Shown in pieces: positions 16,215 to 61,205 of a DNA stretch of 61,205 nt. The notes beneath the pieces were generated by a model. The model saw only the letters and a program-made list of their open reading frames with translations. It was not told the DNA's origin and made no database searches. Both the position numbers and the translations under genes were made by a program. The stretch's first letter is position 1, and every line of letters begins with the position of its first letter. The DNA comes from an uncultured Smithella sp. (GTDB lineage Bacteria > Desulfobacterota > Syntrophia > Syntrophales > Smithellaceae): positions 26,374 to 87,578 of the forward strand of contig CAYNWA010000011.1 in assembly GCA_964400795.1 (NCBI GenBank). Reading direction: 5' to 3'.

Positions 16215-16245
16215 CCCGCCGTCAAACACCAATAAGGAGGATATC

Positions 16246-16530: not shown

Positions 16531-16558
16531 TAGATTGTATTTTCTTTAAGGAGAATAG

Positions 16559-20928: not shown

Positions 20929-20948
20929 TTTTTTGAGGTAAATTACGC

Positions 20949-31963: not shown

Positions 31964-34021
31964 TCAGGAGCGATGAAGTAAGTCTTTTGCCGCTTCAATA
32001 ATTTTTTCAACGGTAAAGCCGAATTTTTCGTAAAGAACCGGTCCGGGCGCGGAAGCGCCGAAGGTTTCCATACCAATAATTTTTCCGTTCAAACCGACGT
32101 AGTGTTCCCATCCCAGTTTGATGCCTGCTTCCACGGCAATGCGTGCGGAAACCTGCGGCGGGAGAACCTTATCGCGGTAGTCACGCGGCTGGCGGTCGAA
32201 TATTTCCCAGCTGGGCAGAGATACAACTCGGACTTTAGAGCCGTTTTCCGCCAGCTTGCGGGCGGCTGTCAGCGTCAGCGGAACTTCCGAACCGGTGGCA
32301 ATCAGAATCAATTCAGAATCGGGCGCCGATTCCCACAGGATATAACCGCCCTGTTTGGTGCCGGACGCGGGTGCTGCAACACTTCTGTCCAGCACGGGAA
32401 GATTTTGTCTGCTGAAGATGAGCGTGGTCGGTCCTTTTGTATTGGTAATGGCGGTTTTCCAGGCCTCCAGCGTTTCATTGGCGTCTGCTGGACGGATCAC
32501 CGTCATGTTCGGCACCTGACGCAAATTCATGATTTGTTCGACAGGCTGATGCGTCGGGCCGTCTTCTCCGACGCCGATGCTGTCATGCGTAAAGACGAAT
32601 ACAGCGCGCAGGCCCATCATTGCCGCGAGGCGCATGGGTGGGCGCATGTAATCGGCAAAGGTCAGAAAGGTTGCCGTATAGGGAATAATGCCGCCATGCA
32701 GGGCCATGCCCACGGTGATCGAGCCCATCGCGTGTTCGCGCACACCAAAATGAATGTTGCGACCCGAATAATCCCAAGCGCCGCCGACCATGCCATGCAA
32801 GCCTTCTTTGGAAAGTTGCAGACTTTGAAAATCTCCCATGCCTTTCAGCCAGGTAAAACAGGAAGGATTAAGATCAGCCGAGCCGCCCGCCAGTTCGGGA
32901 ATTTTCGCCGCGATGGACTGCATCACGATCTCGCTGGCCTTGCGCGTGGCTACGTCTTTTGATCCGTTGGGGAATTCGCTCAAAGCCGATTCCCAACCTT
33001 CAGGCAGGTTGCCTTTCATGATGCGTTCAAATTCCGCCGCCAAAGCAGGTTCATTTTGTCTGAATCCGTTAAACGATTCCTGCCATTGTTTTTCGTATTT
33101 TTTGCCGCGCGACACGGCTTTGCAGAGAAATTTATAAACATTTTCGGAAACAGAAAAAGGAGAATCGGACAGCCAGCACAAGGCGTCCTTGGTTTTTTTC
33201 AGTTCATCGGCTCCCAGCGGTGAACCGTGAGCCTCGCAGCTTCCCTGCCTGCCGGGTGCGCCATAACCGATCGTCGACGAAACACAAATCAACGACGGTT
33301 TTTCGGGTTCACGTTTCGCTTTTTTGATGGCTTTGTCGATAGAGGCAACGTCGTTACCTTTGGCAACTTTCAGCACCTGCCAGCCGTAGGCCTTGAATCG
33401 CTGTTCAATGTTTTCCGTGGAGGAAAGGGCCGCGGAACCGGCCAGCGTTACCCGGTTATCATCGTAAAGGACAATCAGTTTGCCCAGGTGCAAATGACCG
33501 GCCAGCGAACAGGCCTCGGCGACTACGCCTTCCATCATGTCACCGTCACCGGCCATGACATAGGTGAAATGATCAACTATTATTTTATCTTCTCTGTTGA
33601 AGCGCGCGGCAAGATGCGCTTCCGCAATCGCCATGCCCACCGCGTTGGCCAGTCCCTGGCCCAACGGACCGGTCGTTACTTCGACACCGGGCACATGTTT
33701 ATATTCCGGATGCCCCGGCGTGCGGCTTCCCCACTGCCGGAAGGTCTTGATATCGTCAAGTGTCAAATCGTAACCGGTCAGATGCAGAAGAGCATATAAA
33801 AGCATGGAGGCATGACCGGCAGAAAGCACAAAACGGTCACGATCAGGCCATTGCGGATTCTTGGGATTGTGTTTCAAGTGTTTTGTCCAGAGAGTAAAAG
33901 CGGCGGTGGCGGCGCCCAGTGGCATGCCGGGATGACCGGATTTGGCTTTTTCAATCGCGTCCACTGCGAGAAAACGGATGGTATCAATACATTGTTTTTC
34001 CAGCTCTTTTTTGTCAGGCAT
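31964..34021 (-). CDS. tkt: Transketolase
   Basis: [47 protein letters not shown]. Confidence 0.97.
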
Positions 34022-34267
34022 GAAGACTCCTTTAATTATCGTAAGGATGGTGATGTACTAGCACATTTGGAGCTTTTTTAAAACTTTTCTTGGAATATAT
34101 TTTGGACGTAGTCCGTTAAAGCTTATTGTAAAATAAATATCAAGAGATTATGTATTGTTAACAATACGTTAGTTCATGCCGGAATCAATGTATATCATTG
34201 CTTTTTAGGTGATATTCTGTTCAAGACAATTTATCGTCCATACAAAACTATGTAATGATGATATTGA

Positions 34268-34669
34268 TCATCGGCTAATAAATTCTTTTTGCTCATAGGT
34301 AAGATTGCTAATTAACCATCCGCCATAATCCAAACACAGAGTCAAAACATCAACCCCTTTGCGTATCTCATGATCTGTTGTAAGGATATAATCGGCCTTG
34401 ATGACGGCGATATTTCCGTATTGTTTAATTTCCACATTCTGCCATTCTTCAATAAATATTTTGTTTTCAGCCGCATACTCCCGTTGTTCGGGCATACCTT
34501 CGATGATACTTAAACACGAGACAGGCTTCCCCTGCTCTACTCGCACCATGATTGCCCGTTCATCAAAAAGATTTTGCCACTCATCCAAACGTTTTTGGGA
34601 ATAATAAAGAGGGTAGAGTTTTACGATGTCTTCCAATCTAGAATACTGTCTTTCAATTTTCTTGCACAT
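34268..34669 (-). CDS. NTF2/SnoaL-like small protein
   Basis: W..LF...A..., ..GNIAVIKADY...GVDVLTL...GWLI pattern typical of NTF2-like folds. Confidence 0.6.
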   Translation of the reverse strand: MCKKIERQYSRLEDIVKLYPLYYSQKRLDEWQNLFDERAIMVRVEQGKPVSCLSIIEGMPEQREYAAENKIFIEEWQNVEIKQYGNIAVIKADYILTTDHEIRKGVDVLTLCLDYGGWLISNLTYEQKEFISR

Positions 34670-34687
34670 ATTGGATTCCTTGAAGTT

Positions 34688-35938
34688 TTATGTTTTAAAT
34701 GGATATCTGCTTTGTATCTCTACAAATATCATATCCTTCTTTTCTTTCAATATAGCAAAGCTTGTTTGCATTGTTGAACTCATAAATATAATATTTCCAA
34801 GATCTGAACCCAAGCCCAGCGATTCAAGATTATTAACGTGAGTTAAATTAGCTGAAAGGATGTCTGTGTTAATATTATAAGGAGGAAGTGTTTTAAAAAT
34901 GTCACCCTGATATTCTACCCCATATTTCGACAGATATGCTATTTTTTTTACATAGTTTTCATTTCTCATTTTGGAAATTGATTGCTTAATGCGATAGGCA
35001 ATCTGATATTCCGACATTTTCTTGACTTCATTTTTTTCAAATTCAATGACACTAGAGAAAACTGCGTTACCCATATATGATGAATCAACATCAGGATGAA
35101 TGTATCTTAGATTAATGGGAATCCTTAATCTGACTTTATCAGTATCAGGCATAATTTCTTCATGATATTTTTTTAGTATTAAGGCATTTATAATTTGATT
35201 ATGGGAAATTACGTAGTTCTCATTTTCTGATTTTGCTTTGTTTTTAATTTCATCAAGTAATTTTTCGGTAAAGTATTCTCTTTTATAATATGTCTTCCAG
35301 CAATTTAAATTTTTAACTCGATTTTGAATTTCATCGTTTAACTCGGATAATGGAGGAATGAATGCTCTGTCAATCGTGTCAAAACAAACGGGTTGACCCT
35401 TGAATAGTCTCTGATTTGAGGGCATGGGGAAATTATGTCCATAGTGTATACATCCCCATGCAAACATAAAAAGCATCAAGGACGTAGCATCGCCTACCGC
35501 ATGAGAACAACTGATCCCACCTAATATGCCATCCTTTACTGGTATTAATGTAATAGCAAAAAGAGGTTCTCCCGGTAATGTTTTAACATGCTTTATTTTA
35601 TTCATTACATCATCAATATTTATATGATCGGAAGCTACATCAATAAACGGCAAAACATGATATTCAAAACCCTCTTTGCAATATTGGAGCGCATATTTAT
35701 TTTCATCAATCATTATTAAACGGCTGGAAAAAAGGTTGTAATGTTTAATGGTCTTCAAGAGACTTTCTCTTGCTTTCGAGAGAGAGGTCTTTTTCTTATA
35801 AAATACCAAAAATTCCGTTGGCCTGCTGCCGGGATAATCTTTATTTTCAAATATCGACAAAGGTAGAATATTGTTGCCATAATTATTTTCCAGATATGCA
35901 TTTCTTGCATCTTTACAGGTCTTCTGATTTTCTGTCAT
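34688..35938 (-). CDS. CoA-dependent acyltransferase, HxxxD (BAHD/condensation-like) family; paralog of 19681-20928
   Basis: SCSHAVGD motif and many blocks shared with the paralog. Confidence 0.7.
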   Translation of the reverse strand: MTENQKTCKDARNAYLENNYGNNILPLSIFENKDYPGSRPTEFLVFYKKKTSLSKARESLLKTIKHYNLFSSRLIMIDENKYALQYCKEGFEYHVLPFIDVASDHINIDDVMNKIKHVKTLPGEPLFAITLIPVKDGILGGISCSHAVGDATSLMLFMFAWGCIHYGHNFPMPSNQRLFKGQPVCFDTIDRAFIPPLSELNDEIQNRVKNLNCWKTYYKREYFTEKLLDEIKNKAKSENENYVISHNQIINALILKKYHEEIMPDTDKVRLRIPINLRYIHPDVDSSYMGNAVFSSVIEFEKNEVKKMSEYQIAYRIKQSISKMRNENYVKKIAYLSKYGVEYQGDIFKTLPPYNINTDILSANLTHVNNLESLGLGSDLGNIIFMSSTMQTSFAILKEKKDMIFVEIQSRYPFKT

Positions 35939-35969
35939 GATATTCCCAGGTATTTATAAGAAATTTCCA

Positions 35970-35997
35970 GTTCAGCTAAGTCTTTTGAACTTTGCTG
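35970..35997. repeat. Copy of the 28-bp GTTCAGCCAAGTC palindrome family
   Basis: Matches 7087-7114 at 24/28. Confidence 0.7.
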
Positions 35998-36029
35998 TTG
36001 ATAATATATACTGCATGTATGAATAGGAT

Positions 36030-50346: not shown

Positions 50347-51192
50347 TCATTCCCGAATGACCTGTTGAGGAGATTTTTCAAGAACCAAGGGATTTTCCAC
50401 GCATTCTTTAAAAAATAAAAGTATGTCGCAGGCCTTTTTACCATCGAAGATTCGTTCATCTATGGTGAATCCGAATTTGATGACATCTGAAACTTTTAGC
50501 GTGCCTTCAGGTGTCACGACCGGTGCTTTATGCATTGCGCCTATAGTAACAAAAACCGATGCGTTCCCCCAGTCATAGAGATGATGATAAAGAGACTTTA
50601 AACCAAAAGATCCTATGTCTGAAACTACACACGAAGAAAACAAAGGGTTATCTTTATATGATGCATAGGGCAAAAGTCCTTTGTCAATCAGCCATGGATA
50701 TAATATCGCGCAAAATGACGAAATAAAATTGGGAAGTTTCATAAAGAAATCGATTATATTTTCATTGCTGTCGGCCGGTTTTTTAACTGTGTCATTAATA
50801 ATTTCTTTAATTTCCTTTGAGACGTCAAAAATATCCCATTCGGGTTGTCCAAATATTTTACGAAGAACAATTTTCCCGTTGATGTTTATAGCGAATGCTG
50901 CGGAATATTCACGTCTGGCGTAGAATTTATGATTATAAATAAATCTGTTTATCTCGGGAAACTGACTTGTTGTTCTAAGAAGAGCAGAAATGACCAGCTC
51001 AAAAATTGTGATATCATGACCTTCTTTTTTTTTGTTGTTTATAAAATTAACGGTGTGAGCAACGTCAACTTCCAGTTCATGCCAAACAATGGCTTCACTT
51101 CGTTTGGGCATGAAAAATGTGTAGCATTTCTGAAAACTGCTGATTGTTTTAAGATGGCGTCCATCTTTTCTTCCCATGTCAACCTCCGGCAA
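50347..51192 (-). CDS. Standalone 2-oxoacid dehydrogenase E2-like acyltransferase catalytic domain
   Basis: PEINRFI, SDIGSFG...YHHLYDWG and TIDERIFDG. No lipoyl or E3-binding domain. Confidence 0.75.
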   Translation of the reverse strand: MPEVDMGRKDGRHLKTISSFQKCYTFFMPKRSEAIVWHELEVDVAHTVNFINNKKKEGHDITIFELVISALLRTTSQFPEINRFIYNHKFYARREYSAAFAININGKIVLRKIFGQPEWDIFDVSKEIKEIINDTVKKPADSNENIIDFFMKLPNFISSFCAILYPWLIDKGLLPYASYKDNPLFSSCVVSDIGSFGLKSLYHHLYDWGNASVFVTIGAMHKAPVVTPEGTLKVSDVIKFGFTIDERIFDGKKACDILLFFKECVENPLVLEKSPQQVIRE

Positions 51193-51400
51193 AACAGAAT
51201 ATTCATTTGAGAGTTTTACTTGAAACTAATCGTGGTTTGGTATACATGAACAATGCAAAAAGTCAATAAGATGTTGGTCTTTAAATGTGCGAATTAAATG
51301 CGAAAAATAAAAATCTCCTTTTTAATAATTAAGATTCAGGTTATGTTTAACATCCGGTGTGTTCTGAAAAGAGGGACATTATTACCGGAGCGGTAAATTA

Positions 51401-52642
51401 ATGATGAAATGGATCAAGTTGTCATTACGCAATATATTAAGAAATAAACGCCGCTCTTTATTTACTATTGTCACCATAAGCATCGGTTTTGCTTCCATTG
51501 GATTGTGCTACGGATATCTTCATCATACCTATTGGGCTTTAAGCTATCTTGCTATTCACGGTGAAGGACTCGGACATCTGAGAATCAACAAAGCCGGATG
51601 GAAACAATATTCAAAGATGGACAAATTAAAATACATGTTTACATATGAAGAAACCCAAAAAATAATGAAGATTGTCGGTGAAGAAAAAGATGTGATATTG
51701 TCCACACCTCAGATTCAGCTCGCCGGTCTGGTGAGCAATGGTGAAATTTCCACTCTTTTTGTCGGTCAGGGTGTTGTCCCCAAAGACGATAAAATTCTTC
51801 AGACACAACGGTGGATCAAATATTCAAAGATCAAAGGGAAAAGATTGACGGAAGACGATCCCTCCGGTGTGGAGATGTCAAAAGGTTTGAGTAAATATCT
51901 CAATTTAATACCGGGGACAAAAGGCGTGGTTATGTCAAACACAGTCGATGGCCAGATGAAAGCTCTCGATATAAAAATAAATGGGGTCTACGATGCAGGA
52001 AATGAGATTTCCAATAACAAATTTTTACGATTCAATTTAAAATTTGTCCAGTCTCTCCTTGACACTCCATCGACAGAAAGAATCGTCGTTTTGCTCAAAG
52101 ACGTCACAGAAACAGAGGTAATGCGTAAACGCTTACTAAAGAAACTCGACGCTGCCGGCATAAATTGTGAAATGCTGACATGGAATGAATTGTCAATGGT
52201 TTATTCCAAGGTAAAATCTTTTCTCGACGCGATCTTTATTTTTCTTTTTGTTATCGTTTTGTTTATCGCAGTATTATCAATCATTAATACCATGAGCATG
52301 GTGGTCCTGGAAAGAACAAGAGAGATTGGGACATTGCGTACGCTGGGTTTAAAACGCAAAGGCGTAACCATAATTTTTGCTTTGGAGGGAGCTTGCCTGG
52401 GGTTTTTCGGCAGCATAGCCGGTTTTGTGTTGCATAGTGTCGTTGTGGGTATTACCAGATATCATCCCATGCGCTACACGCCGCCGGGTGCATCGAGTTC
52501 CGTATTGCTTTATATAGATATGGTGCCCGATGCGCTGTTTGTATTATTTATAAACTTTATTTTGCTGTCCATGGCGTCAGCTGTTGTTTCCGCCAGGCGC
52601 GCAGCCGGTAAAAATATTGTCGATGCGCTGGGGCATACTTGA
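51401..52642 (+). CDS. FtsX/LolE-type ABC permease (orphan in this window)
   Basis: RNILRNKRRS, VLERTREIGTLRTLG and IVDALGH. Confidence 0.88.
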   Translation: MMKWIKLSLRNILRNKRRSLFTIVTISIGFASIGLCYGYLHHTYWALSYLAIHGEGLGHLRINKAGWKQYSKMDKLKYMFTYEETQKIMKIVGEEKDVILSTPQIQLAGLVSNGEISTLFVGQGVVPKDDKILQTQRWIKYSKIKGKRLTEDDPSGVEMSKGLSKYLNLIPGTKGVVMSNTVDGQMKALDIKINGVYDAGNEISNNKFLRFNLKFVQSLLDTPSTERIVVLLKDVTETEVMRKRLLKKLDAAGINCEMLTWNELSMVYSKVKSFLDAIFIFLFVIVLFIAVLSIINTMSMVVLERTREIGTLRTLGLKRKGVTIIFALEGACLGFFGSIAGFVLHSVVVGITRYHPMRYTPPGASSSVLLYIDMVPDALFVLFINFILLSMASAVVSARRAAGKNIVDALGHT

Positions 52643-52749
52643 AATCTTAAACGAGTAGGCAAAAAGGTTTTTACGGATATTTCATATCAAACAGCGAAAA
52701 ATTTTATTGTGAGACTCAAATTTCAAAAACGAAGTGCGTTGAAATTTGC

Positions 52750-52862
52750 CAGTCGAACAATCCCGCGATAAGCGGAGGGTATAATTCCCCGCCCCTTAGA
52801 GCGAAATTAGGGTTCAGTCCCGATAGCAATCGGGATTGCCTTGGGGTTCATACCCGTGATGC
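52750..52862. repeat. REP-like intergenic element
   Basis: TCCCGAT-AGCA-ATCGGGA palindrome (52818-52835) shared with the elements at 19341 and 39295. Boundaries approximate. Confidence 0.5.
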
Positions 52863-52943
52863 CGGAAATTCAAAAATTTCTGAATTATGATTTAACATAA
52901 GCTGGAAAATTGAAATAAATATTGTAGAGGTTATTGCTGAATT

Positions 52944-53801
52944 TTGAAAAATGTACTGGTTGCCGGAGCCTCATCCGGCATAGGACTTGCTGCATCGCGC
53001 CAACTTAATACTGACGGTTTCTGCGTCTACGCGGGCGCGCAATCATTCGGCAAAGAACAAATCGCATCCGAAGGGTTTATCATGTTGCCCCTGGATGTCA
53101 CCGATGATTTGTCCGTACAGGAAGCAATCCGGAATATTATACAAAGAGATGGCCGCATTGACGCGCTGGTAAACTGTGCCGCGTTTTTGACACTGGGAGC
53201 CTGCGAAGACGTCTCCGCTGAAGAATTACGCCTGGTCATGGAAACAAACTTTTTAGGAATGGCACGCATGACCCGGGCAGTGCTGCCAGCCATGCGCGAA
53301 CAGCAATATGGCCGTATTGTTAATATTTCATCTCTGAACGGTCTGTTCGGCATTCCTTTTCAGGGTGCCTATACAGCATCCAAGCACGCGATTGAAGGTT
53401 GGAGTGAAAGCCTTGCCCAGGAAACAAGACGATTCGGCATTTATGTGACCCTTGTGGAGCCGGGTGATTGTCGGGGCGGTGCTTTGAAGTACCGGACACG
53501 CGCGAAAGCTGCTGAGAAAAAAACTTCCCCTTATGCAGCATGGTATAAAAAAGCTGTCGACAAAATCATTCACGATGAACAAAACGGTCTCCATCCGGAG
53601 CGTGTGGCTCTTGCCATATCAAGCATTCTGCAAAGCCGGTGTCCGCCGTCTCGCCGAATTGTTGCAGATCCAATTCAGCGCTCGGCTGTTTTATTGCACA
53701 AGTTGCTGCCTCGTAGTGTATTTAACCGCATGATTGAAGTTTATTACACACCTGGGCAAGACGATATGCGATCTGAAATAAAAAAAATGGAGGGTAATTG
53801 A
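52944..53801 (+). CDS. Short-chain dehydrogenase/reductase; candidate 3-ketosphinganine reductase
   Basis: GASSGIG, NCA, YTASK and EPGD. Its stop overlaps the next ATG (TGATG). Confidence 0.85.
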   Translation: MKNVLVAGASSGIGLAASRQLNTDGFCVYAGAQSFGKEQIASEGFIMLPLDVTDDLSVQEAIRNIIQRDGRIDALVNCAAFLTLGACEDVSAEELRLVMETNFLGMARMTRAVLPAMREQQYGRIVNISSLNGLFGIPFQGAYTASKHAIEGWSESLAQETRRFGIYVTLVEPGDCRGGALKYRTRAKAAEKKTSPYAAWYKKAVDKIIHDEQNGLHPERVALAISSILQSRCPPSRRIVADPIQRSAVLLHKLLPRSVFNRMIEVYYTPGQDDMRSEIKKMEGN

Positions 53802-55057
53802 TGCCGGGGGAAAAAGATCAGCTGGCTTCGGCATTGCAGCAGGTTTTAAATAAAAAACAATCCAATAGAGATCCAAGAGTATTTACTGAAGACGTCTCTG
53901 TGCAACTGGCGATACTGATGAAAGAAATGGGATTGTATCCTTACTTCATGCCGATATCAGGGCAAATCGGACCGCGAATAATCATTGACGGCAGAGATAC
54001 CATTAACCTTGGCTCCAACAATTACATGGGACTGGCAAACCATCCGGATATGATTAAAGCCGGATGCGATGCCATGAGGAAATACGGTACGGGGTGCACG
54101 GGATCGCGCTTTCTCAATGGAACGCTTGAAATTCATAATGAACTGGAAGCAAAACTTGCAAAATTCTTTCAAAAAGAAGCCGCTCTTTGCTTTACGACGG
54201 GGATGCAGACGAACCTTGGCGTTATCTCTGGAATTACTCATAAGGGTGACCACATCATTTCCGATGAGAATAATCATGCCAGCATTATTGATGGCTGTCG
54301 GCTTTCACGTGCCAGCACTCATGTTTACAAGTATAATAATATGGATGATCTGAAAAGAGTTCTGACCGGTCTTCCAGAACAAGGTAACCGCTGGATCATC
54401 AGTGATAGTATTTTTTCCATGGAAGGGAATGTTGCTCAGATACCGCGTATTGTCGAACTGGCTGAAAGATACAGCGCGCGTGTAATTATTGACGATGCCC
54501 ATGGTATTGGCCACTTCGGGGAGCACGGGGAAGGTATTTGCGGACATTTGGGGTTAATGGATAAGATCGACATCCTCGTCGGTACATTTTCCAAATCATT
54601 TGCCAGCATTGGAGGTTTTTGCGCGGCCGGCAGAGAGATTATTCAACACCTTCAGCATCATGCGCGCAGTTTGATTTTCAGCGCTTCGATGCCCCCGGCT
54701 ATGGTTGCTACGGCCAGCAAAGCCCTGGATATCTTTTATGATGACGATAAAAGAAGAAAACAGGTTTTGCAAAATGCTTCCATTCTAAGAAAAGGTATAG
54801 AGTCTCTGGGGTTTAGAACTGTCCCACAAAAGATACCCACACCCATCATTCCCATTATTGTAGGAGATGTAATGAAATTAGCTTATTTCAGCAAGGGACT
54901 TCTGGAAAACGGTGTCTATATAAATCCGGTCATTCCTCCTGCGTCATCGGAAGCCATGATCAGAATGTCCGTTATGGCTACTCATTGTCAAAAGGATCTC
55001 AAAGATGCCCTGATCATATTGGAAAAAGAAGGCAGGAAACTGGATTTGATAAAATAA
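53801..55057 (+). CDS. spt: Serine palmitoyltransferase-like alpha-oxoamine synthase
   Basis: GLYPYF, GSNNYMGL, YGTGCTGSRFLNGT, NHASIIDG, DDAH, GTFSKS (PLP Lys), IFSAS, NPVIPPA and RMSVMATH. GGAGGG RBS. Confidence 0.78.
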   Translation: MPGEKDQLASALQQVLNKKQSNRDPRVFTEDVSVQLAILMKEMGLYPYFMPISGQIGPRIIIDGRDTINLGSNNYMGLANHPDMIKAGCDAMRKYGTGCTGSRFLNGTLEIHNELEAKLAKFFQKEAALCFTTGMQTNLGVISGITHKGDHIISDENNHASIIDGCRLSRASTHVYKYNNMDDLKRVLTGLPEQGNRWIISDSIFSMEGNVAQIPRIVELAERYSARVIIDDAHGIGHFGEHGEGICGHLGLMDKIDILVGTFSKSFASIGGFCAAGREIIQHLQHHARSLIFSASMPPAMVATASKALDIFYDDDKRRKQVLQNASILRKGIESLGFRTVPQKIPTPIIPIIVGDVMKLAYFSKGLLENGVYINPVIPPASSEAMIRMSVMATHCQKDLKDALIILEKEGRKLDLIK

Positions 55058-55134
55058 CGAACTTATCGAGAATAACACATAATCATATCGCATTAACCAT
55101 TTCAAGATTATAAATTGTTACCAAAGGAAGCATC

Positions 55135-55842
55135 ATGAAACTCAAACAGAACCAAGACGGTAAAAAAGTACTAAAAACAATTTCCAATGATCGCACAAGA
55201 ACCAATTTAATAAGAAAGCCTGAACACATTGCGTTGGTTTTTTTAGTTCAACGCATTCCTTCCTGGATGAGTTCAGACACGCTTACGTTTATCGGATTGT
55301 TAGGAAGCGCAATAACGCTGACGGGTTTTGTTTTAGCCGCCCATATTCAACCCTGCTATTTTTTACTGTGTGTTCTGGGTTTGGCCATAAACTGGTTTGG
55401 TGACTCTCTGGATGGACGACTTGCCTTCTATCGCAACAAATCCCGTCAATGGTATGGATTTACGCTTGATATTATCATCGATTGGATAAGTATAATTTTA
55501 ATAGGTTTGGGATATTTGCTTTATGTTGAAGGCAACTGGAAACTGGCAGGTTTCGGACTCATTGTTTTGTATGGATGGAGTATGCTGATTACGTTGTTAC
55601 GGTATAAAGTTACGGGGAAATATATCATTGATTCCGGTATTTTCGGACCGACGGAAGTCAGGATTCTCATAGCGCTCTTTTTAATTCTTGAAATATTTTT
55701 CAAAGACATCATTTTGTATTCTGCAGCGCTTGCTTGCCTTGTTTTATTCTTCATCAATATTACCGACTCTCTTAAATTGCTAAGCCTTGCTCATGGCAGG
55801 GATCTTGAAGAAAAGCAAAATAATTTATACGGGAAAAAATGA
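55135..55842 (+). CDS. CDP-alcohol phosphatidyltransferase family protein
   Basis: DSLDGRLA...G...D...D signature and GPTEVR; multi-TM. Confidence 0.9.
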   Translation: MKLKQNQDGKKVLKTISNDRTRTNLIRKPEHIALVFLVQRIPSWMSSDTLTFIGLLGSAITLTGFVLAAHIQPCYFLLCVLGLAINWFGDSLDGRLAFYRNKSRQWYGFTLDIIIDWISIILIGLGYLLYVEGNWKLAGFGLIVLYGWSMLITLLRYKVTGKYIIDSGIFGPTEVRILIALFLILEIFFKDIILYSAALACLVLFFINITDSLKLLSLAHGRDLEEKQNNLYGKK

Positions 55843-56020
55843 TTAAAAAAATTTATTTTCATGGTAACTTTAAGCATTTAGCATTTTTCTGGTCTTATCG
55901 GAAAATAAACTGGCCTCAATGCTCTGGGTGATTCCCATATTGTCACAGTATCTTTTGATGAATCTCGTGATGCCTATGTGCCAGGGAGGATTACTTTGGA
56001 TGCTATTGAAATGTTCTAAC

Positions 56021-57466
56021 CTATTTTTCTGAAGGCATGAGATTTTTTCGTTCCTTGTATGCCCAAACGCCCAGAGCGATCATTAATGCAAGGTAAATCG
56101 GAATTCTCCAGAAAAGAGGGAACAGTGCGAACCGGGATTGAACAAAAAAGACTGCTCCGATGAATCCGAACAGACAAAGCATATGTGGCGTCAGTTCCCG
56201 TTTGTAAAGCCAGCGTCCCGTCAGGCGGGTTTGTAAGACGATGACTTGAAGAAATTGCACGCCAATCATTAGAAGCGAGGTAAACGCCGCGCCTAATAGT
56301 CCATGCTGGGGTATGAGCATCACTCCGAATGTCGCCGCAAACAGCAATGTAATCACATTCCGCTTCAGCATCAGTGTGCTTTCCCCCAATCCATAAATCA
56401 CTTGAGAAGAAAGTTCACCGATTCCATTAACGAGCCGCCCGGAGAGGAGAATGAGAAACGCAAACAAATCGACGGAATACTGAGCTCCCGCTATGGACAG
56501 CAGTTCCTTGGGAAAACATGCCATGGTTGCGGCCACAGCGATCTGGATCATGGATACCATGCGAACGGTGTAGGAAAGGACATCCCTTAATTTTTCCCGT
56601 TGGTCATTTGATTGCAGGTGACTGACGATCGGGACGATTAGAGGATCATAACTCAACCGGACTTTCGCGATGCCGTCCGCGAGCATGCGCATGATTCCAT
56701 AGACAGCTGCAGAAGCGGGTCCGAGAAAGAAGAGCACCATCCAAAGATCAATTTGTGTAATGATATTTGCTATTAACCGTGCAAACGCTACGGGCAATGA
56801 ATAGCGAATCAGGCTTTGATCCACGGCTGTAATTCCTCTTTCAAGACTTGGGGGGAAATTATTTGCGAGGTATGTCAGAATGACGATGGCGCAAATCCAT
56901 TTCGCTCCGAACAGGCTCCATGCCAGGGCATTCGAAATTCCCGTCGGCCAGAGGGCAATGGCCAGAATCGGGATAAAGGAAAGGGAAAGAAATTGTTCCC
57001 ATATGGCGCGATATTGCGGTTTCCGGATTCCCATCAGGCATGCGGAACCATAACTGAGAACGACTGAGCCGGGAACGCTGAAAAGACAAATGGTGTAGAA
57101 CCCTAGCGTAACATGTTCAAAGCCGGTTGGGATCCATGCCTTACCGGTTGATAAGACGAGCACGGCAAAAAAAATGAAGCCCCCACTTAGAAAAAGCACA
57201 ATAAGCAACCACTTCCAGACTGTCCCGGCCGTCTGACCCTCTGTCGTTGATTGTTTCGGTATCCACCATGTCATCCCGGAGCTCATGCTCAAGCCGAGAA
57301 TCGTGGCAAGTGTTGTACAAAATGACTGCATCGAGATGAAGATTCCAAACATCTCCTGATTAAAAAGTCTCGGGACAATCAACATTAACGGTGAAATAAT
57401 GATTCTCAAAACCATTGCCGACATGTTGATAAACGAACCGCGAAAAATGAATCGGGTTTCAGACAT
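56021..57466 (-). CDS. MOP-superfamily (Wzx-like) oligosaccharide/lipid flippase
   Basis: About 13 TM segments, ..FG.., RYSLP, D.WMV.FFLG...AAVYG and PQHGLLGAA. Start at 57466 or 57484. Confidence 0.85.
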   Translation of the reverse strand: MSETRFIFRGSFINMSAMVLRIIISPLMLIVPRLFNQEMFGIFISMQSFCTTLATILGLSMSSGMTWWIPKQSTTEGQTAGTVWKWLLIVLFLSGGFIFFAVLVLSTGKAWIPTGFEHVTLGFYTICLFSVPGSVVLSYGSACLMGIRKPQYRAIWEQFLSLSFIPILAIALWPTGISNALAWSLFGAKWICAIVILTYLANNFPPSLERGITAVDQSLIRYSLPVAFARLIANIITQIDLWMVLFFLGPASAAVYGIMRMLADGIAKVRLSYDPLIVPIVSHLQSNDQREKLRDVLSYTVRMVSMIQIAVAATMACFPKELLSIAGAQYSVDLFAFLILLSGRLVNGIGELSSQVIYGLGESTLMLKRNVITLLFAATFGVMLIPQHGLLGAAFTSLLMIGVQFLQVIVLQTRLTGRWLYKRELTPHMLCLFGFIGAVFFVQSRFALFPLFWRIPIYLALMIALGVWAYKERKNLMPSEK

Positions 57467-58580
57467 GGTCGAGTCCTTCTTCACGGGATGGTTCCGGAAC
57501 GACTTCCTGTGTCCGGTCTCCTAACCCTTTTTCCATCATGATGTCCACGAAGCGCTCTCGTTCGTCCGGAGGTATGTTGTTCAGACACGCCAATCCGGCG
57601 TTTGATCCGGCAACCTGTTTCCAGAACAGCTCTATGTTTTCAGAAACGGAGGACGAGGGAAAATCAAACATCGCATGCGGTGCGGAAAGGTACCGGAAGA
57701 GGTGTCGATAAATGCGGTCATGAGGGTCCCATGCAGACAGATTTCCGAAAAGATGCAGATAAAGACGGTCATGAGGGTTCCATTTCTTTTCCATGCTGTA
57801 AAGAATGGTATAATAGGAAATATCTTTGGCATCACGAAAACGCCGCTGGCGAGTTTCCTCCAGGATAGGCCCGAATTCCTCTTCGACGCGCCATGCCGTT
57901 GATTTGCGAATGACAAGAGTCGAATGTATCGGAAAGATAATTTCATAACCGGCAAGACGGTGCCTGCATCTTCTTAGGTGGTCGTAAGCGTTCGCAATAC
58001 CAGAGGAGTAGATATTTGTTCGATACTGCGGCGATACGCGGGAATATTGTCGTTTTATCCACCTGAAATAGGCCGGATGAGTATGCAACTTAAGTGAAAT
58101 TGATCTGTTCCCCTTTATCGTGAAAAAAAAGCTCGGGTTGATTGGTGAAAAATGCATAACATCGTCGTTATTGTGGAGAAAGATTTCGGACAACCCGTCA
58201 ATACGATAGAGAAACGAACCAATGGCTCTGCTGTTAAATGTCGGGAGGCATTGTGCAGGAATGATTTCCCGGTGATCGATGATTTGGACTTGCCCCGAGT
58301 TGAGCAGATGAGATGCAAGGGGCGGAACCTGGGCATCGGTTACGATGAAGATTTTACGAATCCACGGCAGATATTTCAGAACGCTGTTGACGCTGAAAGT
58401 GATTTCTCCTACATCAAAGAAGCGGATATCGATATCTCCTGTATCGGAAACGTTTTTTGATAACGTTGCGTCTGGAGACTCCGAACGATACCGGTGACGT
58501 TTTTCCAGATGTACAGGATCGCTGCCATCGACATAGGTGAATACCATGTCTATCGGAATTTTCGATGTGACTGAATTCAT
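57459..58580 (-). CDS. Stealth-family hexose-1-phosphate transferase (copy 2)
   Basis: CR1 PIDMVFTYVDGSDP; CR2 KYLPWIRKIFIVT...LPTFNS...RIDGLSE...NDD; CR4-like CLNN. Start at 58580 after an AAGGAG RBS. Confidence 0.9.
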   Translation of the reverse strand: MNSVTSKIPIDMVFTYVDGSDPVHLEKRHRYRSESPDATLSKNVSDTGDIDIRFFDVGEITFSVNSVLKYLPWIRKIFIVTDAQVPPLASHLLNSGQVQIIDHREIIPAQCLPTFNSRAIGSFLYRIDGLSEIFLHNNDDVMHFSPINPSFFFTIKGNRSISLKLHTHPAYFRWIKRQYSRVSPQYRTNIYSSGIANAYDHLRRCRHRLAGYEIIFPIHSTLVIRKSTAWRVEEEFGPILEETRQRRFRDAKDISYYTILYSMEKKWNPHDRLYLHLFGNLSAWDPHDRIYRHLFRYLSAPHAMFDFPSSSVSENIELFWKQVAGSNAGLACLNNIPPDERERFVDIMMEKGLGDRTQEVVPEPSREEGLDHV

Positions 58581-58608
58581 GGGTTGCCCCTGTGCTCCTT
58601 TGTAATAT

Positions 58609-59664
58609 CTACTCACCTTTTGAAAGCATCGATACAGAGTCCGTTGCTGTTTCAGCCAATCCTTTTTGCCTCATAACTTCTTCGAACCGCCGGCGTTCAC
58701 TAATGGGCATGTTGTTCAGGCACGCCAGTGGAGCATGAGATCCGGTTATGCGTTTCCAGAGCAGATTACTGTTTCCAAACACGGAAAACGCAGTGAAGTC
58801 GAACATCGTGTTGGGGGCAAAAAGACTTCCCCAGAAGTGCAGATGAACGCGGTTCTGCGGATTCCATTTGTTTTCCATGCTGTAAAGAATTGTGTAATAA
58901 GAAAGATCTCTGGCATTTCGAAAACGTCTGCGGCGGGTTTCTTCCAGAATAGACCCAAACTCCTCCTCTACCCGCAGGGCTGTCGCTTTGCGCCAGATTT
59001 TCGTTGCGTGTACCGGCACGAGAATCTTACGACAGGCAAGATGATGCCTGCATTTTCTCAGAAGAGAATATGCGTTAGAAATCCCGATCGTGTGAAGGTT
59101 GGTGCGATATCCCCAAAATATATAAGATAACTCGGTCATTATCCATCGATACACGGCCGGATAGGTGTGCAACTCAAGGGAAATTGCTCCTTCCGCATTT
59201 GTTGTGCAAAAGAAGTCGGGGTGGATCGGAGAAAAATGCATGTAGTCGTCATTATTGTAGAGAAAGATTTCGGATAAACCATCGATGCGGTGGAGAAACG
59301 ATTCAATGACGTTGCTGCTGAATATGGGCAGGTATTGTGAAGGAATGAATTCCTGAGGATCAACAATTCGGATGCGGCCTGAATTTAGAAGATGCAAAGA
59401 AACGGGAAGTCGTGGGGTTTCGGTTACAATGAAGATCGTGCGGATCCACGGCAGATATTTCAGCACACTGTTGACGCTGAACGTGATTTCCCCGACGTTG
59501 CGGAAACGGATATCGACATCGCCCGAATCGGAGACGTGATTTGATCGTACGGTGTCCGGGAGTTCCGAACGATAACGGCTGCGTGTTTCCAGATATTCGG
59601 GATCATCGCCATCGACATAGGTGAATACCATGTCTATCGGAATTTTCGATGTGACTGAATTCAT
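58609..59664 (-). CDS. Stealth-family hexose-1-phosphate transferase (copy 1)
   Basis: PIDMVFTYVDGDDP, KYLPWIRTIFIVT, IESFLHRIDGLSEIFLYNNDD and CLNN. Confidence 0.9.
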   Translation of the reverse strand: MNSVTSKIPIDMVFTYVDGDDPEYLETRSRYRSELPDTVRSNHVSDSGDVDIRFRNVGEITFSVNSVLKYLPWIRTIFIVTETPRLPVSLHLLNSGRIRIVDPQEFIPSQYLPIFSSNVIESFLHRIDGLSEIFLYNNDDYMHFSPIHPDFFCTTNAEGAISLELHTYPAVYRWIMTELSYIFWGYRTNLHTIGISNAYSLLRKCRHHLACRKILVPVHATKIWRKATALRVEEEFGSILEETRRRRFRNARDLSYYTILYSMENKWNPQNRVHLHFWGSLFAPNTMFDFTAFSVFGNSNLLWKRITGSHAPLACLNNMPISERRRFEEVMRQKGLAETATDSVSMLSKGE

Positions 59665-59717: not shown

Positions 59718-61205
59718 TTACAAATTGAATTTAATGCCCAGCATTGCTTGATAATTAAGAACACCGCCATATTCCGTATCTTCATTTCCCACGTTAATCG
59801 CTGTAGTACCAAAAATATCCCAATAATCACCCAGTGAATATGAAAAGAGTCCAAATAATTGGCCGGAGCCATCATCGAAATTTTGCGTCCAGCGTAAGGT
59901 AACGGCTAATCTGTTGAATATGTTAACCTGATGATATTGAAGCATGACGTAGTTTCTGCGTAAAAATCTTAGCCCGGGATCTGTGGGTTGAGAAGAAAGA
60001 TAGTCTAAGATATCTTCCTTGGTTTTCAACGCCCAACGGCTATTCTTTTTGTGTATCGTACGATCGTAATCGTCAGAAGCTTCTTGTAGAGTAGAGAAAG
60101 CCAGGTTGGCTTCATCTTTATCATAACCAACTCCATTATATAAATACTCCAGGGTTAAGGTACCTCCATTGAAAAACGTGTATGCCCCTCCGGCCAGAAT
60201 GGATGGCCTAATATCATTGTCATCACTATGGATCTGTTGCAGGGAGGCTCCGAAACGTGATGAATCCTTTACAGGATACCACGCGTTGCTTCCTTGTCGT
60301 ACATTTCCTTCTGTGTAAAGCAGCAGAGCATCAGATGCTGTCCATACACCGAAAAAGCCGAATTTATCCGTTTGATTGGCTTCCTTTCTTGAATAAATTA
60401 AAGATCCGTAACCGTTAACACCTGTATAATCAATCTTAAGGGCATAGGTTTTATCAAAAGGTTCCAAATTGGGGAGGGTATTACGTCCTTCATCCGTATT
60501 AGCAATCAGAGATATTGACCAGTCGGAATGGGGAACCAACAAAAGACGAACGAAATCCATTCCCTGAATTTCCGCGTAGGTATTGCCCCGGCCGTTATCG
60601 CTAAAAAAAGGATTAGACGGAGAAACAAGGAAAGAAGGACCCCATTGCAGATTTTCTCTTCCGTAGGACACAAAAAGTCTGTTCCACCCATTTAGTCTGA
60701 CTAACCATTCGTTTACGTACCAGTCATCTTTTCCTTCTGTATCTCCTTCACGCATCCCTTCTTCCCAAAGCCGACAGTCGAGTTTCGCTCTGGGTTTGGC
60801 GGAAAGCTCCAGGTAATTTGAATTAAAATAGAAATCGGGCCTTATTTCCAGATCAGCACGATAATGCGGAATTTCAAGAAAATCATTGTTGGGATTGCGG
60901 CTCGATTCAACGGGATCCTGAGCAATTCCATAAGCGAGGACTTTCAAATCTGACGAAAAAAAATTCCTGATTTTTTGTAATGTCGTTTGGTTTTCGGCAT
61001 CCATCAGTATCATATCGATATTTTCATCGGATAAACGTAATGCCTCCGGATTTCCTTCAACGGAAGGAGCGCTTGTAATACCTGACGTTTCCTCCGGAAG
61101 AGCTTTTGGAGATTGAGAGGAATATTGATCTTCGACAAACTCTTCATGAGGATTTTCTGTAGCCCGGGCTGGACTCGGCATCCATAAAAAAGGAACAATG
61201 ACTAG
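59718..61205 (-). CDS. Exported, probable outer-membrane beta-barrel protein; 5'-partial (frame open to the window edge)
   Basis: The frame continues upstream of 61181 as LVIVPFLW-MPSPARA, resembling a signal peptide. GRENLQWG motif, alternating beta-strand pattern and C-terminal GIKFNL. Confidence 0.7.
   Translation of the reverse strand, partial: LVIVPFLWMPSPARATENPHEEFVEDQYSSQSPKALPEETSGITSAPSVEGNPEALRLSDENIDMILMDAENQTTLQKIRNFFSSDLKVLAYGIAQDPVESSRNPNNDFLEIPHYRADLEIRPDFYFNSNYLELSAKPRAKLDCRLWEEGMREGDTEGKDDWYVNEWLVRLNGWNRLFVSYGRENLQWGPSFLVSPSNPFFSDNGRGNTYAEIQGMDFVRLLLVPHSDWSISLIANTDEGRNTLPNLEPFDKTYALKIDYTGVNGYGSLIYSRKEANQTDKFGFFGVWTASDALLLYTEGNVRQGSNAWYPVKDSSRFGASLQQIHSDDNDIRPSILAGGAYTFFNGGTLTLEYLYNGVGYDKDEANLAFSTLQEASDDYDRTIHKKNSRWALKTKEDILDYLSSQPTDPGLRFLRRNYVMLQYHQVNIFNRLAVTLRWTQNFDDGSGQLFGLFSYSLGDYWDIFGTTAINVGNEDTEYGGVLNYQAMLGIKFNL

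Follow-up and report, generated by a model that had tools for sequence, protein, structure and literature searches.

Described bacterial systems

Among the described systems closest to the locus presented here, Bacteroides thetaiotaomicron carries a CFB-type SPT, BT_0870, followed in the pathway by BT_0972, a classical SDR of NAD(P)H type for which the 3-keto reduction has been proposed; an assay for NADPH-dependent 3-ketosphinganine reduction is described in the same work (PMC9278070). In Caulobacter crescentus, where the pathway comprises Spt, bCerS and CerR, the SPT gene is found with a reductase gene and with lipid-export or head-group genes (PMC11087976, PMC11334938). CerR is periplasmic, and Caulobacter cells lacking it accumulate oxidised ceramide (PMC11087976). 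The clean division between a Bacteroides and a Caulobacter route that an earlier note on this DNA had drawn is not established: homologues of bCerS and CerR occur in Bacteroides too, and which step comes first is debated there and for bacteria at large (PMC10865984, PMC11087976). Non-canonical bacterial routes to sphinganine-type products include the sphinganine-producing SgaAB system of Pseudomonas fluorescens MYb115, a PKS and an alpha-oxoamine synthase (AOS) with SPT activity, whose layout is resembled by two further loci, L011 and L012 (PMC12134224). The synthesis of capnine also employs an SPT-like condensing enzyme and a ketoreductase step (PMC9304779). Finally, Black Sea metalipidomics has tied 1-deoxyceramides to Desulfobacterota, and alternative amino acids have been proposed as substrates of Spt-like enzymes (PMC11334938).

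The window analysed here, 61,205 nucleotides from an uncultured Smithella sp., contains an SDR gene and an SPT-like gene that overlap, whereas the SPT and reductase genes of B. thetaiotaomicron are unlinked (PMC9278070). The locus is read, with somewhat more confidence than doubt, as a gene cluster of a Syntrophaceae-like sediment bacterium for making a lipid of sphingolipid type (a long-chain amino-alcohol lipid), plausibly a new form of bacterial sphingolipid cluster. It differs from the Caulobacter system in that bCerS and CerR homologues were not found in the 61-kb window, the scope within which their previously claimed absence holds; in addition, no ACP or acyl-ACP synthetase genes adjoin the SPT. 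A scan of the open reading frames detected no known ceramide synthase in the 61-kb window. Unlike SgaAB and L011/L012, the window has no PKS, and its AOS falls within the classical SPT clade and outside the PKS/FAAL-linked one.

Gene layout

The SDR reading frame occupies positions 52944–53801 of the forward strand, with a TTG start and a TGA stop at 53799–53801. The ATG of the synthase lies at 53801–53803, and the two genes share one nucleotide within the sequence TGATG (53799–53803). A GGAGGG ribosome-binding site at 53789–53794 ends 6 nt 5' of this ATG and, together with TGATG, forms the element (53789–53803, forward strand) that couples SDR and synthase. Direct reading of the sequence thus bears out both the overlap and the ribosome-binding site reported before. 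A TTG at 53798 is given as the start in the program-made list of reading frames; with the ATG at 53801 the protein has 418 aa, as do its closest homologues (P0121–P0124). The third gene (55135–55842) begins after a gap of 77 nt from the synthase stop and has an AGGAAG site of its own, so that 'translationally coupled', a term previously extended to all three genes, is true of the SDR–synthase pair alone.

Stop/start overlaps of one or four bases are commonplace in operons, and the SDR–synthase overlap is therefore ordinary by itself. What goes beyond chance is that the order SDR-then-AOS, with tight spacing, is found again in another phylum: Clostridial SDR and AOS genes overlap by 4 nt in L007, L008 and L115 and by 14 nt in L116. 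In a Syntrophaceae MAG locus (L001) the overlap is also of 1 nt. A scan of the locus for promoters and terminators gave a result at chance level.

The oxoamine synthase

The gene at 53801–55057 (forward strand) encodes a PLP-dependent alpha-oxoamine synthase of 418 aa, placed in the SPT clade by NCBIfam and PDB matches, a neighbour-joining tree and individual residues. The four motifs originally quoted are all present, namely GLYPYF (aa 44), GSRFLNGT (aa 101), IFSAS (aa 292) and NPVIPPA (aa 375) with MATH at about aa 392; GSRFLNGT is the same in the SPT of S. multivorum, and the others are close matches. The best NCBIfam model is SPT-CFB (NF047600) with 455.3 bits, a lead of 66 bits over TIGR01825 (389), ahead of KBL (368) and BioF (366). 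This score falls short of the curated SPT-CFB equivalog cut-off of 640, as the protein does of every curated cut-off. SPT-CFB is likewise the best model for all relatives within the clade, which score 435–629 bits, none reaching 640, and the clade is the most divergent among the SPT-like sequences tested. Among PDB entries S. multivorum SPT matches best (344 bits); it is the nearest validated CFB-type enzyme, at just 44% identity, and the top solved relatives are three validated SPTs (344, 279 and 265 bits) with KBL at 254 bits.

A phylogeny of the kind advocated in the earlier note was built by neighbour joining, a distance method, from 391 columns with 100 bootstraps and with E. coli Kbl and BioF as sole outgroups. 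The synthase groups with the validated SPTs of S. multivorum, S. paucimobilis and S. wittichii in a clade with 98% bootstrap support, outside which fall Kbl, BioF and the fused or PKS-linked AOS domains. The PKS/FAAL-linked AOS domains form a separate group with 100% support and are 30–31% identical to the synthase. Model scores, identity and tree agree in supporting the original view that the predicted enzyme is a relative of the Bacteroidetes-type SPTs and not a BioF or Kbl.

A function in primary metabolism, as a Kbl-type glycine C-acetyltransferase acting with a threonine dehydrogenase or as BioF, is to be weighed at this point. The KBL and BioF models still return 366–368 bits, database entries for many relatives are automatically named '8-amino-7-oxononanoate synthase', and threonine dehydrogenases of the SDR type exist. 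Such a function is nonetheless highly improbable: Kbl and BioF fall outside the SPT clade of the tree at 98% support, SPT structures score above KBL, and the neighbouring SDR is of the classical type (adh_short 151.7 bits), unlike threonine dehydrogenases of the SDR type, which are epimerase-like (Epimerase 25.2 bits for the window SDR). Moreover, no bio or tdh genes were detected among the 42 larger open reading frames of the window scanned with Pfam, a scope within which the previously noted lack of bio genes holds.

The active-site residues listed as conserved in SPTs (PMC9304779) are all retained (N73/N74, H159, D231/D232, H234, K265 and R388) and align with those of S. multivorum and Sphingomonas SPT, the PLP lysine K265 lying in GTFSKS. 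A further residue bears on a sulfonolipid (capnine-type) pathway, in which the pair would act as cysteate acyltransferase and dehydrocapnine reductase. That pathway has the same pairing of SPT-like enzyme and ketoreductase (PMC9304779), and cysteate acyltransferase structures (SulA/CapB) are detectable at 206–211 bits, far under the SPTs and also under KBL. Lys281 of the sulfonolipid cysteate acyltransferase SulA, where Spt has Ala, is a discriminator between the two enzymes (PMC9304779); the equivalent position in the window's synthase, K265+30, is A295 within IFSASM, aligned to FSASM of S. multivorum SPT. No cysteate synthase was found in the window either, and a capnine-type product seems very remote.

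Scores below the curated cut-offs and membership of the most divergent sub-clade lend some weight to the idea that the synthase may take alanine, glycine or a basic amino acid, for example, in place of serine, which would yield a 1-deoxy- or non-canonical long-chain amino alcohol, as do the 1-deoxyceramides tied to Desulfobacterota in the Black Sea (PMC11334938). Two observations make this distinctly unlikely: every active-site residue common to validated SPTs is kept, and a putative phospho-head-group transferase adjoins, which would imply a C1 hydroxyl, provided by serine only.

The SDR and its Clostridial relatives

The SDR (52944–53801, forward strand; 285 aa) is a classical member of its superfamily by Pfam and NCBIfam and, from its neighbourhood, a proposed cytoplasmic 3-keto-amine (3-ketodihydrosphingosine-type) reductase. 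The Rossmann motif GASSGIG (aa 8–14) and the catalytic residues N102, S130, Y143 and K147 are all intact; GASSGIG and the Ser-Tyr-Lys features are common to all SDRs and non-specific. The protein shares its broad PRK06179/PRK06182-like branch with BT_0972, and the top NCBIfam model is KdsR (NF049977, BT_0972 type). With 235 bits where 400 are required, the protein lies outside the equivalog, and unrelated SDRs (Bacteroidota PRK06182-type and one PRK06179-type) score 209–231 bits on the same model. The KdsR score is thus about the background of this SDR branch and is no evidence of function; membership of the KdsR (BT_0972) family was ruled out.

CerR is of the epimerase/extended-SDR type. In contrast, the window protein is a classical, cytoplasmic adh_short enzyme (adh_short 151.7 bits, Epimerase 25.2 bits), and a CerR type was rejected on these scores and on the lack of a hydrophobic N-terminal segment. 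No signal peptide, transmembrane or other hydrophobic segment was found in the SDR, whose N-terminus opens with the Rossmann strand; without a signal peptide the enzyme should reside in the same compartment as the SPT.

The subfamily has two signatures that do not vary across its alignment (A1): NCAA, which replaces NNAG, and the substrate-loop motif PGDCRGG, which is unlike that of characterised SDRs. Beyond the Syntrophaceae lineage, close relatives are Clostridial SDRs only. In a set of FAAL-ACP-AOS loci (L006–L008, L013, L014, L017, L023, L026, L027 and L114–L116) the SDRs have both signatures at 45–63% identity, and the genes keep the same SDR-first order, often with a 4-nt overlap. A literature search for such Clostridial SDR plus FAAL-ACP-AOS loci retrieved no publication. 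Thirteen of 21 Clostridial relatives lie directly upstream of, or near, an oxoamine-synthase gene, compared with none of 65 generic SDRs. In all six relatives that were looked up (52–63% identity) the SDR is immediately upstream of a FAAL-ACP-AOS fusion. Among 15 from species-representative genomes, seven have an AOS-domain gene nearby, downstream in six cases; in L021 a stand-alone AOS lies ∼2 kb upstream, and the remaining eight of this genome scan have no adjacent AOS. The Clostridial loci differ from the window in that the partner synthase is part of a ∼1100-aa adenylation-carrier-AOS fusion from a different AOS clade and in that CDP-alcohol phosphotransferase, Stealth and flippase genes are absent nearby. 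The nearest synthase relatives outside the Syntrophaceae (other Desulfobacterota-like contigs and Lokiarchaeum) have no SDR alongside, and the SDR of L011 is of another type (PRK06181-like, 29% identity).

By sequence and gene context, the SDR forms a separate subfamily that recurs beside oxoamine synthases and is an orthologue of neither BT_0972/KdsR nor CerR. Its adjacency to AOS genes in Clostridia supports a 3-keto-amine reductase role, and the SDR probably reduces the keto product of the synthase. The earlier proposal of a 3-ketosphinganine reductase is upheld as regards this role, while the family match that might have underpinned it is at background.

The same chemistry could proceed in another order, with the SDR acting on an N-acylated 3-keto-dihydroceramide, as in Caulobacter, and not on free 3-ketodihydrosphingosine. 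The debate on step order in bacteria and the oxidised ceramide of Caulobacter without CerR speak for this option (PMC11087976, PMC10865984), and the SDR sequence, with its unusual substrate loop, fixes no substrate. Yet the SDR is cytoplasmic and coupled to the synthase, whereas CerR is periplasmic (PMC11087976); the Clostridial SDR/FAAL-ACP-AOS pairs have no annotated acyltransferase gene alongside, and no bCerS homologue was found in the window. Reduction after acylation appears unlikely, although sequence does not bear out the direct succession to SPT that was first proposed.

The third gene

The third gene (55135–55842, forward strand) encodes a membrane protein of 235 aa with ∼6 transmembrane segments, identified by its structural model as a divergent protein of CDP-alcohol phosphotransferase fold, with an altered form of the motif, and proposed as a phospho-head-group transferase. 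The family is characterized by D-x2-D-G-x2-A-R-x8-G-x3-D-x3-D on a cytoplasm-facing helix pair. The corresponding sequence here is D90-x2-D93-G94-x2-A97-x2-R100-x7-G108-x3-D112-x3-D116, invariant in the alignment A2. In 20 members of the third-gene family the four Asp, both Gly and the Ala are all invariant; the Ala is followed by Tyr, Phe, Ile or Val, an invariant Arg comes two positions later, and the spacing from Ala to Gly is one residue longer. Against Pfam PF01066 the protein scores 20.0 bits, under the cut-off of 22, while E-values of 0.01 or lower were obtained for 18 of 20 homologues, down to 2e-9.

Among solved structures the third-gene profile best matches human CEPT1/CHPT1 (31 bits, ∼20% identity), which use a CDP donor to attach a phospho-alcohol to a lipid hydroxyl, the role proposed for the third gene. 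The resemblance is very distant, the window protein is far shorter, and the Arg of DGxxAR is shifted by two positions. The insect ceramide phosphoethanolamine synthase is also a CDP-alcohol phosphotransferase. An AlphaFold2 model (pLDDT 83.5, pTM 0.77) shares the common fold: ranks 1–18 of a Foldseek search of the PDB are all CDP-alcohol phosphotransferases (PIPS, CHPT1, CEPT1, IPCT-DIPPS and AF2299; probability 1.00, query TM 0.48–0.73), followed by noise. Predicted fold and altered motif together make the third-gene product a probable, divergent CDP-alcohol phosphotransferase; the assignment made at first sight is retained on these grounds, with a sub-threshold Pfam score and without the translational coupling. 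The scan of the window's reading frames found no cytidylyltransferase for a CDP-alcohol donor.

Flanking genes and probable extent of the cluster

Convergent with the operon, the reverse strand encodes a 487-aa multi-TM flippase of polysaccharide type (MOP/Wzx-like; 56021–57484; a weak Pfam Polysacc_synt match of 25.4 bits). Next to it on the same strand are two Stealth-family proteins: the first (57459–58616; CR1–CR3, Stealth_CR2 100.8 bits by Pfam) is a putative hexose-1-phosphate transferase, and the second (58609–59664; Pfam, and tblastn on L095) is a tandem paralogue ∼60% identical to it. On the other side, 301 nt upstream of the SDR and on the same strand, lies a gene for an FtsX/LolE-like ABC permease of 413 aa (51401–52642; FtsX 59.5 bits, NCBIfam lolCE 84.8 bits, sub-cut-off), a possible lipid exporter whose membership of the cluster is uncertain. 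Divergent from it on the reverse strand (50347–51192) is a gene for a stand-alone 281-aa acyltransferase-like protein of 2-oxoacid-dehydrogenase type (CAT fold; Pfam 2-oxoacid_dh 59.7 bits). Alignments to E2 structures show Glu (DERIFDG) at the position of the catalytic His of DHRxxDG, and the motif YHHLYDWG is conserved; the protein is a speculative N-acyltransferase candidate. The pairing of permease and divergent CAT-fold gene is kept in L001, L095, L097 and L098, and in L112 a 24%-identical CAT-fold homologue is divergent to an SPT-like gene, with a desaturase, a DAGK-type kinase and an ABC exporter as neighbours.

It may be asked whether SDR and synthase make a sphingoid base while the third gene, flippase and Stealth proteins merely lie alongside and serve something unrelated, a phospholipid pathway or one for capsule or phosphoglycan. 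Capsule synthesis is the setting in which Stealth proteins are best known, and the third gene is set apart by its 77-nt gap and separate ribosome-binding site. Its Bacteroidales homologues (55–60% identity) lie beside a GtrA-like gene with no SPT nearby. L097 has flippase, Stealth, permease and CAT-fold genes and is missing SDR, synthase and CDP-alcohol phosphotransferase, which indicates that the modules are separable. On the other hand, in L011/L012 a 65%-identical CDP-alcohol phosphotransferase homologue adjoins a PKS-AOS-SDR set that is non-homologous to the window's pair, with a flippase homologue (43%) convergent to it and then a Stealth homologue (43%). The whole arrangement is also conserved at 85–99% identity in L001 and L095, though both are close relatives. 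Separate pathways are on balance doubtful, if the most serious of the competing explanations to be kept in mind. Recurrence of the trio beside an unrelated PKS-AOS-SDR cluster suggests that a single cluster probably reaches 59664, with the flippase and the first Stealth protein as probable members.

Proposed pathway

In the sphingolipid-type pathway favoured here, the PLP enzyme, by homology, would carry out a condensation of L-serine and a long-chain acyl thioester that gives 3-ketodihydrosphingosine. The cytoplasmic SDR, as operon coupling and conserved neighbourhood suggest, would then use NAD(P)H to reduce the ketone at C3, giving a sphinganine-type base, before or after N-acylation, an order that is not readable from sequence. 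N-acylation would fall to an enzyme other than those assigned, possibly and speculatively the CAT-fold protein. From its fold, motif and neighbourhood, the third-gene protein may add a phospho-alcohol head group from a CDP donor at the C1 hydroxyl. More speculatively, the flippase and the two Stealth hexose-phosphate transferases could elaborate and export the head group. The locus would most likely make a sphingolipid-type membrane lipid through a gene set without earlier description.

Gene arrangement and coupling

Direct reading of the sequence bore out the coordinates and features that the earlier note had assigned to the segment 52944–55842. The SDR gene (52944–53801, +; 285 aa) has a TTG start preceded by AGAGG ∼14 nt upstream and encodes a protein with the N-terminus MKNVLVAGASSGIG. 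Its TGA (53799–53801) and the ATG of the oxoamine synthase gene (53801–53803) have one base in common, with GGAGGG at 53789–53794. The synthase (53801–55057, +) is a 418-aa PLP enzyme in which GLYPYF is found at residue 44, GSRFLNGT at 101, IFSAS at 292 and NPVIPPA...MATH at 375–395. The description of the whole segment as a translationally coupled operon holds for the SDR/synthase pair, with its 1-nt overlap, but not for the third gene (55135–55842, +), which follows after a 77-nt gap and has its own AGGAAG site. Stop/start overlaps are frequent in operons, so that the overlap is in itself unremarkable. A promoter and terminator scan of 51150–56100 gave counts equal to the shuffled expectation, and no operon boundaries were obtained. 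The 301-nt spacer located 5' of the SDR gene (52643–52943) is hairpin-rich and harbours an inverted repeat, TCCCGATAGCAATCGGGA, at about 52819–52836; it shows neither an Rfam match nor a terminator-like T run.

The Syntrophaceae MAG GCA_016928665.1 gives the best protein matches, at 86–87% identity and in identical gene order, and the sediment-metagenome contig ORXD01001417 encodes proteins that are 95–99% identical across the whole cluster. The G+C content of the window is ∼45%, without a break in composition at the cluster, and whole-window scans disclosed no tRNA and no Rfam match.

The 42 larger ORFs of the window include no homologue of the Caulobacter-type acyltransferase (bCerS) or reductase (CerR), no ACP or acyl-ACP synthetase, no cytidylyltransferase for a CDP-alcohol donor, and no bio or tdh genes, in agreement with the earlier observations that bio genes are not nearby and that a GNAT-type synthase and CerR are missing from the operon. 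The sole GNAT found forms a fusion with a BKACE domain and lies 30 kb from the cluster. A separate same-strand string (14197–22265, +) comprises genes for an aldehyde dehydrogenase, a peroxiredoxin, a malonate-decarboxylase-alpha-like protein, a second SDR, a BAHD-like transferase and a GNAT–BKACE fusion. Two BAHD-like acyltransferases of the PF02458 'Transferase family', a family chiefly of plants and fungi, are encoded at 19678–20928 (+) and 34688–35938 (−), the latter in a markedly low-GC stretch (34001–36000, GC 0.336).

The oxoamine synthase

Pfam assigns to the synthase no more than the generic aminotransferase class I/II fold. Of the NCBIfam equivalog models, that of Bacteroidetes-type SPT (SPT-CFB) is best at 455 bits, followed by TIGR01825 (389), KBL (368), BioF (366), beta-proteobacterial SPT (356) and alpha-proteobacterial SPT (317), all of these scores, that of SPT-CFB included, lying under the cut-off of the model concerned. 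The proposal that the motif blocks are nearer to Bacteroidetes-type SPT than to BioF is thus upheld. In a control set of relatives from across the SPT clade, SPT-CFB is the best model for 10 out of 10 (435–629 bits), with none at the cut-off. Among solved structures the SPT of S. multivorum ranks first (344 bits, 44% identity), ahead of those of S. wittichii (279) and S. paucimobilis (265), with KBL (254) and the cysteate acyltransferases (206–211) lower.

A neighbour-joining tree (31 sequences, 391 columns, 100 bootstraps), with references taken from PDB alignments together with E. coli K-12 bioF and kbl, places the enzyme with the SPTs: it falls inside a clade with 98% bootstrap support that contains all three validated SPTs and leaves E. 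coli Kbl and BioF outside. The FAAL- and PKS-linked oxoamine synthases (AOS) form a separate clade with 100% bootstrap, also external to the validated-SPT clade. The conserved residues of the Spt family are complete in the synthase (Asn, stacking His, Asp/His, PLP Lys and Arg). Ala295 is located 30 positions past the PLP lysine, where SulA, the cysteate acyltransferase of sulfonolipid synthesis, has Lys281 and Spt has Ala (PMC9304779); the IFSAS block therefore coincides with a published Spt/SulA discriminator. Within the SPT clade the synthase takes an outlying position; it very probably makes a long-chain 3-keto amine, and serine ranks as its most likely substrate, with good though somewhat lesser confidence. 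The neighbourhoods of its closest relatives beyond the Syntrophaceae (loci L002–L004) contain no SDR and no lipid genes, which indicates that SDR–SPT coupling is not general to this SPT sub-clade.

Homologues 48–62% identical to the synthase are present in Asgard archaea, namely Lokiarchaeum ossiferum, Promethearchaeota, Kariarchaeota and Harpocratesius (proteins P0138, P0141, P0148, P0150, P0156, P0159–P0163, P0175 and P0195; locus L004). In the neighbour-joining tree the Loki- and Promethearchaeota sequences cluster with those of Syntrophales with 100% bootstrap within the validated-SPT clade; the Kariarchaeota and Harpocratesius sequences branch just outside this group, still within the same clade. 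In a Black Sea survey, no Spt-like proteins were reported for archaea, and no paper connecting Asgard archaea with SPT was found in the open literature. Should the Asgard homologues prove to be functional SPTs, they would bear on the origin of eukaryotic sphingolipid synthesis.

The SDR and its AOS-linked relatives

By family the SDR is a classical adh_short protein, and both its cofactor motif and its catalytic residues are intact. Its top match is the NCBI KdsR model, which represents the BT_0972 reductase family of Bacteroides (PMC9278070), at 235 bits against a cut-off of 400. Bacteroidota PRK06182-type SDRs and one PRK06179-type SDR reach 209–231 bits with the same model: unrelated SDRs of the same branch score alike, and KdsR orthology was rejected. 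The SDR belongs to neither of the known bacterial reductase families, KdsR and CerR.

Gene neighbourhoods are more informative. Apart from the Syntrophaceae lineage, all relatives above ∼45% identity are Clostridial, and the six looked up in the protein collection (52–63% identity) are, without exception, encoded directly upstream of an ∼1100-aa adenylation/carrier/AOS fusion, with spacings between a 14-nt overlap and a 168-nt gap. In a scan restricted to one genome per species, an AOS-domain gene lies near 7 of 15 Clostridial relatives, usually directly downstream, and near none of 65 more distant SDRs. The Clostridial partner AOS belongs to the other AOS clade, being 42–46% identical to a PKS-linked AOS and ∼30% to the window synthase; what stays constant is therefore the SDR subfamily rather than the AOS. 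Two distinctive motifs are invariant in this subfamily: NCAA, in the place usually taken by NNAG in SDRs, and, in the substrate loop, PGDCRGG.

The AOS neighbourhoods support a predicted function as 3-keto-amine reductase, compatible with reduction before or after N-acylation, and the SDR probably reduces either the product of the synthase or its N-acyl form. Of the earlier assignment as a 3-ketosphinganine reductase acting straight after SPT, the keto-reductase role is thus sustained by gene context, whereas the KdsR match, a background score, lends it no weight. No signal peptide or hydrophobic segment was found in the protein, so that it should act in the cytoplasm beside SPT, unlike CerR, which is periplasmic in Caulobacter (PMC11087976).

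The SDR–fusion pair (AMP-binding, carrier and oxoamine-synthase domains) occurs in many MAGs of Clostridia and Oscillospiraceae (loci L006–L008, L013, L014, L017, L023, L026, L027 and L114–L116), often adjoining hprK/ROK/gidB genes and, in the MAG GCA_031550535.1, in two copies. The pair appears to be an uncharacterised long-chain amino-alcohol route of Gram-positive gut and rumen bacteria. A literature search on FAAL–ACP–AOS plus SDR in Clostridia yielded nothing relevant, and this large set of uncharacterised loci is flagged here as probable long-chain amino-alcohol makers.

Head-group, export and acyltransferase candidates

The third gene scores 20.0 bits with Pfam CDP-OH_P_transf, slightly under the cut-off of 22, a model matched by 18 of its 20 homologues (54–87% identity). 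The motif D-x2-DG-x2-A...R...G-x3-D-x3-D is invariant in these homologues, with the Arg shifted by two residues towards the C-terminus relative to the canonical form. Against solved structures the family profile retrieves human CEPT1 and CHPT1 only (E 1e-6), and the first 18 structural matches of an AlphaFold2 model (pLDDT 83.5) are all CDP-alcohol phosphotransferase chains. Homologues 64–87% identical are Syntrophaceae-like or of the L011 type described below; the remaining ones listed are 54–61% identical, and the few with a taxonomic name are Bacteroidales. The one Bacteroidales homologue looked up (L009/L010) lies upstream of a GtrA-like gene with no SPT nearby. Orthology with the Bacteroides PIP synthase BT_1523 is not supported: in that enzyme the DGxxAR motif is canonical (PMC9246714), and no MIPS or PgpA genes occur at the locus of the Bacteroidales homologue. 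The third gene may add a phospho head group to the predicted sphingolipid-type product of the locus, a role given slightly less than even weight.

Downstream lie genes for a flippase (56021–57484, −) and two Stealth proteins (57459–58616 and 58609–59664, −). The locus L011/L012, part of a metagenome contig of 621 kb, carries a homologue of the third gene (65% identity) in convergent orientation to flippase and Stealth genes that are each 43% identical to those of the window. Within a few kb the contig also encodes a PKS of 2582 aa, then an AOS and an SDR of a different type, a layout like that of the sphinganine-producing SgaAB system (PMC12134224). As the phosphotransferase/flippase/Stealth trio recurs there next to a route that would yield an amino ketone of the same type through non-homologous enzymes, 56021–59664 is argued to share the pathway, and participation of the Stealth and flippase genes is tentatively entertained. 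The Stealth paralogues (57459–59664, −) stand in tandem, the stop of one overlapping the start of the other, and are ∼60% identical; only one such gene is present in the relatives L011 and L097. The Stealth/flippase string ends with a gene (59718–61181, −), retained in ORXD01001417, for a 487-aa protein with an acidic, low-complexity N-terminus and no Pfam or NCBIfam match.

Upstream, an FtsX/LolE-like permease gene (51401–52642, +) and a divergent gene for a CAT-fold protein (50347–51192, −) are kept together in L001, L095, L097 and L098, that is, in the Syntrophaceae MAG, the sediment contig and two further loci. L097 has this pair, the flippase and Stealth, with transposase fragments and a GT2 gene between the flanking modules and no SDR, synthase or CDP-alcohol phosphotransferase; the cluster modules are therefore separable. 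At 2968–5514 of L097, whose flanking genes are 68% identical, transposase/integrase fragments and a duplicated flippase fragment replace the three genes, and the GT2 glycosyltransferase gene lies further along (5862–7433), a pattern that suggests insertion-sequence-mediated loss or rearrangement.

The CAT-fold protein was considered as the missing N-acyltransferase because a distant homologue (24% identity) in L112 is divergent to an SPT-like gene (44% identity) amid genes for a fatty-acid desaturase, a DAGK-type lipid kinase, a nucleotidyltransferase and an MsbA-like exporter. This adjacency is confined to two lineages, that of the window and L112, and is absent at the other OADH-like loci scanned (L100–L111 and L113); moreover, the catalytic His is changed to Glu. 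A role as general SPT partner is poorly backed by such a distribution, and the protein is judged unlikely to be the N-acyltransferase. The L112 genes form a compact putative sphingolipid cluster (6250–14901 of the high-GC contig Ga0315338_1000081), which also holds a 330-aa gene without assigned family, the CAT-fold acyltransferase-like gene and an ELM1-like glycosyltransferase.

Comparison with known pathways

Bacterial sphingolipid synthesis is known chiefly from Bacteroidota, Sphingomonads, Caulobacter and myxobacteria, and both the identity of the bacterial 3-keto reductase and the order of steps are still disputed. The SDR–synthase system would follow the same SPT-then-ketoreductase logic as in eukaryotes, like that proposed in Bacteroides (PMC9278070). 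Among bacterial sphingolipid clusters, no counterpart of the linked head-group genes has been described. Spt-like genes were predicted for Desulfobacterota in surveys, which also recorded clusters without bCerS and CerR (PMC11334938); no paper on sphingolipids of Syntrophales was found.

A bolder and rather unlikely reading is that of a self-contained sphingolipid route assembled from parts foreign to the described bacterial pathways. Here the cytoplasmic 3-keto reductase may represent a new AOS-coupled family of classical SDRs, also Clostridial; the His-to-Glu CAT-fold (2-oxoacid-dehydrogenase-like) protein may replace bCerS as N-acyltransferase; the short CDP-alcohol phosphotransferase, the Stealth hexose-phosphate transferases and the flippase may build a phospho-glyco head group; and the SPT sub-clade is common to Syntrophales and Asgard archaea (55–62% identity). 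If true, this would place sphingoid-base synthesis in syntrophic partners relevant to eukaryogenesis models.

The SPT-overlapping SDR, lacking an export signal and belonging to an AOS-linked subfamily, constitutes a directly testable candidate for cytoplasmic, eukaryote-like reduction, and the phosphotransferase/Stealth/flippase module suggests undescribed head groups, which would be relevant to the unusual sphingolipids of anoxic sediments and water columns.
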